Below are positions 36,600 through 37,810 of a stretch of DNA of 64,000 bases, in pieces; position 1 is the stretch's first letter, and every line of letters starts with the position of its first letter. The stretch is taken from positions 73,407 through 137,406 of the forward strand of contig CAKPYH010000004.1 in the NCBI GenBank assembly GCA_934202735.1, given 5' to 3'. The notes under the pieces are model-generated. The model saw nothing but the letters and a program-made list of their open reading frames with translations. It searched no databases and was not told the DNA's origin. A program made the translations under genes and the position numbers. Source of the DNA: an uncultured Alphaproteobacteria bacterium (lineage in GTDB: Bacteria > Pseudomonadota > Alphaproteobacteria > CAAHEQ01 > UBA3637).

Positions 36600-36950
36600 A
36601 TTAATTAATAAAAAAGCTTGTTTAAATTAGATTTTTGTGATATAAAGATAACTGGCTTAGCGGTAGCTATTCCATAGTTATGACGTTCCTTGCAGTCTTT
36701 GGGAAGTTCTTAGTGACTTTTGAGGCACTATGACAACTTTTACAAGACATTTTGAATTTTATTTTGGTTTTTTCGCCATTCGATTTTTCGATAAGAACGC
36801 TAGGCCTAAATGTAAGGAGATATATTATGTCTATATATAATATATGTCACTTACTTCGAGAGGTCGTAAACTTAATGATTGCTATTTTAAGATTAGTAAT
36901 CATTATCGTAGAACTCTTGGAGGTGGTGATTAACTATAAAGGAGTTTTTT
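36600..36950 (+). ncRNA. Candidate structured ncRNA upstream of minimal RT (retron msr/msd or DRT ncRNA-like)
   Basis: 350 nt without credible ORF, same strand as RT; inverted repeats taatgatt/aatcatta at ~36871-36903. Confidence 0.25.
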
Positions 36951-37697
36951 ATGTCTTACCAAAAATATGAATTAAAATATAAATTTAAAACCGATAAATT
37001 TATATTTGTTCCTTCTGAAGTATCTCGAATACATGGTCTAAAAATAAAAAAAGAATTAGAAAAACAGTTTAAAATCCCTTCTTTTTATCAGCATTTATTA
37101 CCTAAAGGTCATGTAAAAGCAATAAAAAAACATTTATTTCAAAATTGGTTTATAAAAGCAGATTTAAAAAATTTTTTTTATAATATTACTCAAACTAAAA
37201 TTACAAGATCGTTGAATGCTTTGCTTCACAATTATGAGAAGGCTAGATATATTGCAAAGGTATCAACCGTAACATCAGAAATAGATAAGAAAAAAATTTT
37301 TCATCTTCCTTATGGATTTATTCAATCTCCTATAATTGCAAGTATATGTCTAAACCATAGTGGGCTAGGTCAATATTTACATTGGTTAGATTCAAATGGA
37401 TATAAAGTATCGGTATATGTTGACGACATTATTATTTCAGGAAAAGAAAAAGATGATCCCATTAAAGTACTTGATCAATTAAAAAAACTTTCGATACAAT
37501 CAAACTTGCCTTTAAATTCCGATAAAACATTTATTTCATATGAATCTATAACCGCATTTAATATAGATTTAACATTTAATCAAACACTTATTAATCCAGA
37601 AAGAATGAAGGTATTTCAAGAGATTTTAAAAAGCAAGTGTAGTTCATTAAAAAAAGAAGCAATTCAAAAATATATTAATGATGTTGAGAGAGTATAA
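36951..37697 (+). CDS. Minimal reverse transcriptase (248 aa; retron/DRT/Abi-RT-like)
   Basis: KADLKNFFYNI (RT motif 2/A), LPYGFIQSPIIASICL (B'), YVDDIIISG (C, YxDD). Confidence 0.75.
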   Translation: MSYQKYELKYKFKTDKFIFVPSEVSRIHGLKIKKELEKQFKIPSFYQHLLPKGHVKAIKKHLFQNWFIKADLKNFFYNITQTKITRSLNALLHNYEKARYIAKVSTVTSEIDKKKIFHLPYGFIQSPIIASICLNHSGLGQYLHWLDSNGYKVSVYVDDIIISGKEKDDPIKVLDQLKKLSIQSNLPLNSDKTFISYESITAFNIDLTFNQTLINPERMKVFQEILKSKCSSLKKEAIQKYINDVERV

Positions 37698-37810
37698 ATT
37701 CATCAACTCAATATTTAAAAATTTTTTTCATTTGAATAAGATTTGTTGTACCTTTTTTCTTCCTCTTGTTCTGAGTTTCTTTTATTGTTTTCCTTTCGCT
37801 TAAATGAAAA

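Follow-up and report, generated by a model that had tools for sequence, protein, structure and literature searches.

A compact retron-like module of structured RNA, small protein gene and reverse transcriptase in an alphaproteobacterial genome

Introduction

The Type VI retrons Retron-Vpa2, Retron-Sen3 and Retron-Eco12, phage-defence systems that were described only recently, are organized in the order noncoding RNA (ncRNA), small protein (SP) gene, helix-turn-helix (HTH) gene and reverse transcriptase (RT) gene. The hybrid RNA of Retron-Vpa2 consists of msr-msd together with a translationally repressed toxic SP, and it is the multicopy single-stranded DNA (msDNA) that derepresses SP (bioRxiv 10.1101/2025.10.22.683967). 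Stand-alone (msr-msd)-RT cassettes are known from retron RT clade 2 (Ec107-like), which is mostly gammaproteobacterial, and from clade 11, which is essentially actinobacterial (Mestre et al. 2020, PMC7736814). Here we describe a retron-like locus in a 64,000-nucleotide (nt) stretch of contig CAKPYH010000004.1 from an uncultured alphaproteobacterium (hereafter, the window). A structured RNA, a 47-codon gene that we also term SP and a gene for a 248-amino acid (aa) RT follow one another there on the same strand. A first-pass annotation of the window had proposed at this place a minimal RT with a structured non-coding leader, in the manner of a retron or of a single-gene defence RT.

The module resembles the Type VI retrons in having, in order and on what would be a single transcript, a structured candidate template RNA, a small helical hydrophobic protein and a small RT. 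The ribosome-binding site (RBS) of the small protein gene is base-paired within the RNA in both, both are found in mobile elements or defence islands, and neither small protein belongs to a database family. Unlike Type VI, there is no Cro/C1-type HTH gene between SP and the RT gene, a gene found in about 78% of Type VI systems. The present RT is ~30 residues shorter at its N terminus and falls outside the Type VI clade by hidden Markov model (HMM) scores. The present SP gene overlaps and abuts the RT gene and is fused to it in a few lineages, and its product is shorter (31-54 aa to an invariant Tyr) and ends in N-Y; the four available Type VI SP fragments have only a vague C-terminal likeness to it ('SN..DW' versus 'NY'). 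The RBS in Type VI lies in the basal stem, whereas here it pairs with an internal segment and so crosses the terminal stem.

With the stand-alone cassettes of clades 2 and 11 the module shares a retron-type RT, an adjacent structured RNA and the absence of a large associated effector. It differs from them in having an SP gene and RBS masking, in matching the RT_Ec107-like and RT_outgroup models at only ~1e-12 to 1e-13 and in spanning the Alpha-, Beta- and Gammaproteobacteria. The canonical retrons Ec86 (type II-A) and Ec78/Ec83 (type I-A) provide the closest solved RT folds, with template modeling (TM) scores of 0.73-0.77, and have in common with the present family the thumb motif G..Y/F..SV(N/D) and an ncRNA closed by inverted repeats with a UAG motif after the 5' arm. 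The present RT, in contrast, is without about 48-60 N-terminal residues and has ITA for VTG; there is no separate enzymatic effector, and the ncRNA is fused to the mRNA and masks its RBS. A tiny hydrophobic peptide whose Shine-Dalgarno (SD) sequence is sequestered in a folded 5' leader is also reminiscent of the toxins of type I toxin-antitoxin systems (Hok, TisB, Ibs and Fst), but here there is no evident antisense RNA gene, the peptide comes with a coupled RT and toxicity is only presumed. The module is a variant of the retron kind that is closest to Type VI in its proposed working without being a member of that type.

Results and discussion

A compact RT family

The first-pass annotation was right to call the RT gene as such: Pfam RVT_1 matches residues 31-197 of the product with E=1.1e-17, and the motifs A, B' and C that it had pointed out hold the invariant positions of the family. 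Across 73 aligned relatives, these are D71 and F76 in motif A, P120, G122, Q125 and S126 in motif B', and Y156, D158 and D159 in motif C. T201, A202, F203 and N204 are likewise invariant or nearly so, and belong to an ITAFN sequence that in the window RT occupies the place of the retron 'VTG' motif. The protein was described earlier as short and without added domains, and we also found no extra domain on it.

The short length is the norm of the family and not the result of truncation. A word-indexed search recovered 77 family clusters, all of 160-299 aa and nearly all of 245-265 aa. An exhaustive profile search of 1.84 billion sequences (E<=1e-30) gave 290 representatives, each standing for a cluster at 50% identity; nearly all are again 245-265 aa long, and they match the profile from position 1-4 to its end. 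The window RT is modeled by AlphaFold2 as a complete fingers-palm-thumb structure with a predicted local distance difference test (pLDDT) score of 96.4 and a predicted TM-score (pTM) of 0.91. The 248-aa protein is a full-length member of a discrete compact RT family.

This family is found at 147 loci in GTDB species representatives, mostly Proteobacteria, and its range covers the Alpha-, Beta- and Gammaproteobacteria. The closest relative of the window RT (L011, 98% identity) is encoded in a metagenome-assembled genome labelled uncultured Alphaproteobacteria, and the closest distinct homologue (L003) has an RT that is 62% identical and different neighbouring genes. Tracing family members through the literature by accession (WP_006050598, EDT09309 and others) yielded no paper naming them. 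The window locus had no match in E. coli genomes, and its only match to phage DNA was 198 nt of the neighbouring protease gene.

Retron affinity of the RT

Against the PADLOC models the window RT scores ~60 bits with RT_I-B and RT_IX, 51.8 with RT_VI and 46 with RT_X; a generic CRISPR-associated RT model scores about the same as the best retron RT models. The NCBIfam retron St85 model gives 45.5 bits (cut-off 235) and the group II maturase model TIGR04416 gives 45.3 bits (cut-off 300). When 73 family members were scanned, the retron models I-B, II-A, VI and IX were the best in all of them (1e-21 to 1e-23), with several retron types at similarly weak E-values for each member and no type standing out. 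The type-specific retron models reach about 75 bits at most. RT_VI gives 52-75 bits over the family, with a best E-value of 6.4e-22 among the 73, and does not rise above I-B, II-A and IX, and the HMM scores do not place the RT in the Type VI clade (clade 3). The RT_Ec107-like and RT_outgroup matches mentioned above were also obtained with PADLOC.

Comparisons with RTs of known structure point in the same direction. A profile search of PDB sequences was led by the retron RTs Eco8, Ec86 and Ec78. The family profile aligns with residues 60-298 of the 320 residues of the Ec86 RT, placing ITAFNI over VTGLVI and the C-terminal G..YV.SVN over GWLSFILSVD. The second hallmark of retron RTs, besides VTG, is NAxxH; at this position the present family has A..xH with a different spacing. 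Canonical retron RT profiles extend about 22-65 positions further at the N terminus than the window RT, and Ec86 has 48 more residues. When the AlphaFold2 model was used as a Foldseek query, 15 retron RT chains ranked first (query TM 0.63-0.77), of which the best (TM 0.73-0.77) were the RTs of Ec86, Ec83, type I-A and Eco8. Group II intron RTs, DRT9 (rank 21), DRT2 (rank 27), G2L4 and diversity-generating retroelement (DGR) RTs followed below them. Sequence and fold both place the RT within the retron RT radiation, as a compact member and, since all retron scores fall far under the family cut-offs, a distant one.

A covarying RNA directly upstream

The general idea that a retron-like RT works here with an adjacent upstream structured RNA has held up, both through the affinities of the RT and through a conserved RNA whose closing stem resembles the a1/a2 repeats of retrons. 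The first-pass annotation had suggested that such repeats and conserved stem-loops be sought in the leader, and a covarying closing stem and hairpins are present (Table 1). A covariance model with five helices, R1, was built from 29 beta- and gammaproteobacterial loci, with the window clade excluded. Its sole significant match in the 64-kb window is at 36649-36832(+), with 32.1 bits and E=8.5e-7. R1 matches 60 of the 83 sources searched, always on the RT strand and directly upstream of SP. Its match is weak or absent in an alphaproteobacterial subgroup (L042, L058, L066, L079 and others), where by eye the layout is the same and the sequence different.

In the R1 alignment of 60 loci, which was fitted to the model and so favours structure in pairing statistics, 94.6% of cells are paired, as against 31-43% after a shift of the 3' partners by 1-3 columns. 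Compensatory changes occur in 15 of 24 pairs, and for each of the five measures all 500 column shuffles fell short of the observed value. P1, P3, P4 and P5 were also recovered by RNAalifold from an alignment made with MAFFT alone, in which 12 of 18 pairs have compensatory changes; this alignment misplaced P2 and the variable hairpin, and the structure was therefore supplied to the covariance model. P1 is 99.4% paired with compensatory changes in five of six pairs (one pair is UA in 31 loci and CG in 27), P2 is 84% paired (three of five pairs compensatory), P4 is 89% paired (two of four) and P5 is 100% paired (three of four). Most loci have GCGC/GCGC as the arms of P5; the window has TCGA/TCGA and L003 has TCGT/ACGA. 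The window clade has AGTGaC/GCACT in place of the conserved hairpin P3, GTCAC/GTGA. The sequence of the central hairpin varies among loci; in 55 of 59 others, the corresponding segment of 34-67 nt forms one hairpin (median z -2.1). Invariant single-stranded motifs are UAGG, UUGGUU and CAUGCGC.

A conserved small gene between the RNA and the RT gene

Comparison of the window with L003 first revealed, besides conserved blocks upstream, a small conserved ORF with its frame preserved. This gene, SP, is present in 72 of the 76 non-redundant loci scanned; the automated scan counted 71, and L019 and L022, which it scored as lacking SP, do carry it. In two loci beyond those with a separate gene, L055 and L065, SP is fused in frame to the RT. 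The encoded protein begins with a basic stretch (typically MKK), continues with ~30 residues of hydrophobic or amphipathic character and carries an invariant Tyr, which mostly occurs as N-Y; in the window it has one long hydrophobic or amphipathic helix. It is 31-54 residues long up to the invariant Tyr, with a median of 38. The tail past the Tyr is not conserved and overlaps the start of the RT gene, by 20 nt in the window.

The pattern of change in SP is that of a coding sequence. Synonymous variation is seen in the N codon (AAC/AAT) and in the Y codon (TAC/TAT), and 21 close pairs differ at 58, 45 and 106 sites in codon positions 1, 2 and 3, respectively. Synonymous to nonsynonymous codon changes are 75:90 in frame, compared with 33:131 and 25:145 in the other frames. 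SP is annotated as a gene in the public assembly, and it has no match in Pfam or PADLOC. A 19-residue Kyte-Doolittle window reaches at least 1.6 in 46 of 70 SP sequences. Except for the N-Y, SP is far less conserved than the RT.

The presence of SP alters the earlier view of the leader. The ~350 nt upstream of the RT gene had been taken as a structured non-coding leader without a credible ORF. A conserved structured RNA does occupy part of that stretch, but SP lies in the same stretch, and with its strong SD and its coding signature the absence of an ORF proved to be a mistaken call. The statement that no effector gene is adjacent has to be revised for the same reason, because a conserved small gene precedes the RT gene; it stands to the extent that we detected no other conserved protein partner within 4 kb at 80 loci. 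The inverted repeat that had been offered as an example of RNA structure just before the RT start, TAATGATT (36873-80) and AATCATTA (36898-905), sits within the SP coding sequence. The repeat that matters for the RNA is instead GGCTTAGCG and CGCTAGGCC, since the earlier one lies in a 21-nt stretch that is absent from L003. That stretch lengthens the hydrophobic helix of SP by seven residues in the window clade.

Masking of the SP ribosome-binding site and coupling to the RT

A segment of the RNA just 3' of P2 is complementary to the SD region of SP. This anti-SD:SD helix comprises 9 bp in the window, with a free energy of -11.4 kcal/mol (RNAduplex). Over 52 distinct loci, matched anti-SD and SD segments have a mean of -12.6 kcal/mol versus -7.4 kcal/mol for mismatched ones, and none of 10,000 permutations was as good (p<=1e-4). 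The bases 5' of the GGAG core are diverse (GATGA, AATG, GTCAAA, GATTA, GATCTA, AGCATA, ACGAT and others), and the anti-SD covaries with them in the loci inspected. The helix is either a pseudoknot or an alternative conformation, since it crosses P1 (the order being 5' arm of P1, anti-SD, 3' arm of P1, SD).

Measured downstream from the Tyr codon, the start of the RT gene is at -11 to +31 nt (median 8.5), and 65 of 72 loci have the RT in frame +1 with respect to SP. An SD-like 4-mer belonging to the RT itself is present in just 20 of 72 cases, among them the window (AAAGGAG, 36938-44). Most of the family RTs being without such a motif, translation of the RT is probably coupled to that of SP, and masking would hold down both. 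SP overlaps the RT gene directly, so there is no room for a further gene between them, and there is no HTH gene at this position. In-frame SP-RT fusions are found in four loci or proteins (L055/P0185, L065, P0020 and P0221), and the ncRNA is kept in L055 and L065.

Table 1. Elements of the module and flanking signals, in window coordinates.
Feature	Position	Strand	Basis or remark
Putative promoter	36618-36646	+	-35 TTGTTT 36618-23, 17-nt spacer, extended -10 TGATATAAA 36638-46
Structured ncRNA core	36654-36806	+	Covariance model; closed by stem P1
Stem P1, 9 bp, a2/a1-like inverted repeat	GGCTTAGCG 36654-62 with CGCTAGGCC 36798-806	+	Covariation
Candidate branching G, unpaired after P1	G36663	+	Priming role proposed by analogy with retrons
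Hairpin P2	TAGCTAT 36664-70, loop TCC, ATAGTTA 36674-80	+	Holds invariant 'AG' of UAG(G/C)
Anti-SD segment TTCCTTGCA	36686-36694	+	Pairs with 36811-36819
Long central hairpin, candidate msd (template stem for reverse transcription)	36695-36748	+	Minimum free energy fold of window RNA
Hairpin P4	TGGT 36765-68 with GCCA 36775-78	+	Inside conserved TTGGTT motif
Hairpin P5	TCGA 36780-83 with TCGA 36788-91	+	Covariation
SP SD region TGTAAGGAG	36811-36819	+	Core AAGGAG 36814-19; sequestered by 36686-94
SP gene, 47 aa, MSIYNICHLLREVVNLMIAILRLVIIIVELLEVVINYKGVFYVLPKI	36827-36970	+	Strong SD; conserved N36-Y37 at 36932-37
RT gene, 248 aa	36951-37697	+	Fingers, palm, short thumb; YVDD residues 156-159
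G+C-rich hairpin, probable bidirectional terminator common with convergent Fic gene	37883-37903		T-runs flank it on either side; minus-strand scan, plus-strand T-run by reading

A hypothetical model for the module

We think it somewhat better than an even chance that the module is a self-contained, three-part retron-like hybrid RNA unit that functions in the way of the Type VI retrons, with SP as its output. Its own promoter would give one transcript with the ~150-nt structured RNA, the 47-codon SP and, right after SP, the 248-aa RT. P1 would bring the 5' end of the RNA, with its conserved G and UAG(G/C) motif, beside the 3' end. Retrons prime complementary DNA (cDNA) synthesis on a 2'-OH using such a terminal-stem geometry. 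In the folded state the anti-SD would be paired with the SD of SP, and SP translation would be low. The RT would bind its own mRNA leader and copy it from the P1-proximal end through the hairpins toward the anti-SD. The anti-SD:SD helix could then be opened by the synthesis of cDNA, by RNase H as it removes the template or by accumulated cDNA, in which the SD sequence is present as DNA. A phage that perturbed cDNA turnover would by this route turn on the translation of SP (and of the RT), and SP, with its basic N terminus and single hydrophobic or amphipathic helix, would be the presumably toxic product released.

Several observations weigh against this model. Translation of the RT appears to depend on that of SP in most loci, so that an RT-first unmasking of SP would need leaky expression. 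The HTH protein, which is the repressor or antitoxin of Type VI, is absent, and the SP-RT fusions and the abutment of SP on the RT start fit a subunit role better than a free toxin. The base after P1 is G in only 80% of the 60 loci, and the invariant A-G of UAG(G/C), 3-4 nt beyond that base, is predicted to be paired in P2, so that G36663 is only a candidate for the branching G. The window RNA taken alone folds only marginally better than shuffled sequences (z = -1.95). The VTG position in the Ec86 alignment reads ITA in the RT family, and no catalogued retron type claims the family by HMM.

It is possible, although we consider it on the unlikely side, that the locus is instead a stand-alone retron with a split RT. 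SP would then be a detached N-terminal helical extension that is translated in a coupled manner and assembles with the 248-aa core, without a dedicated effector. Through the anti-SD helix, serving as an operator, the RT would regulate its own synthesis, and the cassette would resemble the stand-alone branches known from retron RT clades 2 and 11 (PMC7736814). The tight spacing and near-constant frame offset between the invariant Tyr codon and the RT start, the natural in-frame fusions and the missing N-terminal residues of the RT relative to retron profiles and Ec86 are all in keeping with this explanation, although misassembly or pseudogene formation may account for some of the fusions. With SP and RT joined in one profile, the Ec86 alignment reaches into SP and sets v-A-F-N-Y on t-A-D-F-R-Y (Ec86 43-48), but the gain in score from SP is about 0.6 bit (41.2 to 41.8) and is not significant; HMM scans of the natural fusion P0020 did not reach the N-terminal portion of any of the retron profiles. 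When a fusion model is used in Foldseek, the alignments with retron RTs grow from about 254-263 to 285-295 columns, but the root mean square deviation is worse and TM increases by only 0.00-0.04. In the AlphaFold2 prediction SP forms two helices, a feature also of the N-terminal extension in RTs of the non-long-terminal-repeat type, but the SP part of the fusion model has a pLDDT of 53-72. The low conservation of SP outside N-Y does not suit an RT subunit, and SP, which is membrane-peptide-like in the 46 of 70 sequences noted above, is unusually hydrophobic for a soluble helix pair.

The split-RT explanation and the hybrid RNA model that we favor are not mutually exclusive. A two-piece RT that uses SP as its own N-terminal extension, with the mRNA leader as both template and RBS lock, could form a positive-feedback switch that is triggered by cDNA and needs no protein repressor; this combination we regard as doubtful. 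More speculatively, the invariant C-terminal Tyr of SP might be a protein-priming residue, as in AbiK, DRT9 and the hepadnaviral terminal protein.

The leader might be purely cis-regulatory, an RBS-masking leader, thermometer or protein operator for a two-gene operon whose RT acts on another RNA. RBS masking, as the best-supported function of the RNA, and the tentative nature of the branching G speak for such a leader, but five conserved helices together with UAGG, UUGGUU and CAUGCGC exceed what RBS masking needs. To our knowledge, all characterized bacterial RT families with a conserved adjacent ncRNA (retrons, DGRs, DRT2 and DRT9) use that RNA as a template or scaffold, and we consider a leader with regulation as its sole role improbable.

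The first-pass annotation preferred an RT-only mechanism like that of DRT2 or DRT9, defence-associated RTs (DRTs) in which concatemeric or homopolymeric cDNA is made from the adjacent ncRNA without an effector protein. A small RT, a conserved upstream ncRNA and the absence of a large neighbouring effector would suit such a system, and the DRT9 and DRT2 structures are both among the distant fold matches of the RT. However, all solved retron RTs outrank the DRTs in fold, the best DRT-type PADLOC model (RT_UG17, 43 bits) lies under the best retron models (60 bits), and neither UG2 nor UG28, the models for DRT2 and DRT9, is among the 25 best PADLOC matches of the window RT. With the NCBIfam models Drt3a and Drt4 the scores are 35 and 19 bits, where the cut-offs are 200 and 450. 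The terminal stem of the ncRNA is retron-like, and a conserved coding gene stands between RNA and RT, so the locus is not RT-only. A DRT2/DRT9-like system is very improbable on this evidence.

A truncated group II intron or DGR RT, which the generic RVT_1 and 45-bit TIGR04416 matches might suggest, is refuted by the family-norm length over 290 clusters, the TIGR04416 score far under its cut-off of 300, the complete and confident AlphaFold2 fold, the absence of group II intron RNA or anything else relevant in a permissive Rfam scan of 36000-38500 (best match, a Phe-leader-like terminator at 37875-37961 on the other strand) and the absence from 33-42 kb of a template/variable repeat pair, direct repeats there being no longer than 33 nt and A+T-rich chance matches.

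Implications

If the hybrid RNA model is correct, the module represents a further retron-like lineage beyond the 13 catalogued types, comprising about 290 clusters at 50% identity. Its three parts occur together in hundreds of bacterial lineages. Censuses that demand high RT-model scores would miss the family, since type-specific models give about 75 bits at most. In one recent metagenome survey, a retron was retained only if it scored 160 bits or more with a general retron HMM (bioRxiv 10.64898/2026.05.14.725207), a threshold at which the present family would probably be lost. The module would also be among the smallest self-contained RT systems, with promoter, template RNA, a 47-codon gene and a 248-aa RT in ~1.1 kb, a size that is attractive for retron-based genome editing. 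It would embody a simpler hybrid RNA logic without an HTH repressor, in which the link between cDNA and translation could be tested with fewer parts. Enterobacterial experiments should be straightforward, because members of the family are carried by P2-like prophages of Klebsiella pneumoniae and by a Pantoea plasmid.

Promoter, terminator and genomic setting

Most of the 60 P1-anchored loci have a -10 element of the TGnTAnnnT type with its end 7-10 nt before P1, and from this spacing the transcript is predicted to start at about 36653, at the 5' base of P1. A scan for strict sigma-70 consensus sequences did not report the proposed promoter, because its -35 element matches at only three of six positions. 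Downstream, between the RT stop codon and the terminator hairpin, there is an exact 14-nt direct repeat, AACCTTTACTTTCT, at 37809-37822 and 37850-37863. Its first copy is part of a 12-bp hairpin (37811-37839), and the repeat may be an insertion scar or an att-like remnant.

The neighbours are those that were named in the first-pass annotation, a truncated S49 prohead protease gene upstream (36076-36597(-)) and a fic gene as the next gene downstream (37988-39052(-)). The Fic protein has a C-terminal winged-helix domain and is a nearly full-length match to the single-gene defence protein SoFic (PADLOC 1.5e-50, profile positions 25-349 of 361). From 30700 to 43500, lambda-like head and tail genes are broken, with A+T-rich cargo (26-35% G+C) between them. 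The phage genes, at 42-52% G+C, encode a tube protein, the truncated S49 protease, a portal protein split into 39132-39905 and 39936-40649, gpW and a GpA nuclease fragment. This region looks like a decaying prophage that has served as a landing pad for defence-type genes. Also encoded here are an 845-aa UvrD-like helicase with weak GajB matches (1.6e-8) at 31737-34274(-) and, at 35545-35991(-), a NUDIX protein that matches the candidate defence family PDC-S07 (1.8e-14).

A 408-aa protein encoded at 40694-41920(-) has a weak phosphoribosyltransferase match (PADLOC PRTase_III-A 1.7e-5, Pfam Pribosyltran 7.7e-4). It was rejected as an effector of the type III-like retron kind because its gene is 3 kb away on the other strand, with the Fic gene and portal fragments between, and because it is not found near other family members. 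It probably has nothing to do with the RT. Within 4 kb of the 80 loci mentioned above, tyrosine integrases recur in 16, and HTH-like ORFs occur in nine, at variable positions and on either strand. Several of the other recurring neighbour clusters were spurious, being antisense ORFs inside the RT gene.

The module is often just downstream of a tyrosine integrase gene in other genomes, and other family members adjoin type I restriction-modification, Schlafen-like or STAND genes. Records of P2-like (Peduoviridae) prophages of Klebsiella pneumoniae end with a family member. One of these, Klebsiella phage Kp4845-2 (L097; OK490395, 34336-35455), together with 12 sister records, has the ncRNA (R1 E=9e-11), an SP of 57-62 aa ending in ...LNMAFNY... 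and an RT of 257 aa. The Pantoea agglomerans plasmid NZ_CP090210 (L098; locus 2616-3741, ncRNA E=1e-9) has its family member in the leading region, directly after ssb and psiB, a placement that would expose the module early in conjugative entry. The setting of the module fits mobile defence cargo, and an anti-phage function may be supposed.

In Roseateles subflavus (L056), a second, different RT-like ORF of 300 aa (8696-9598(+), E=6e-11 with the family profile) is found 2 kb downstream of the family RT. In L003-L010, the contigs with P0003, which is the closest distinct homologue of the window RT, the RT gene stands among ankyrin-repeat genes and beside an integrase and a serine recombinase, which suggests a host-associated (endosymbiont-like) bacterium.

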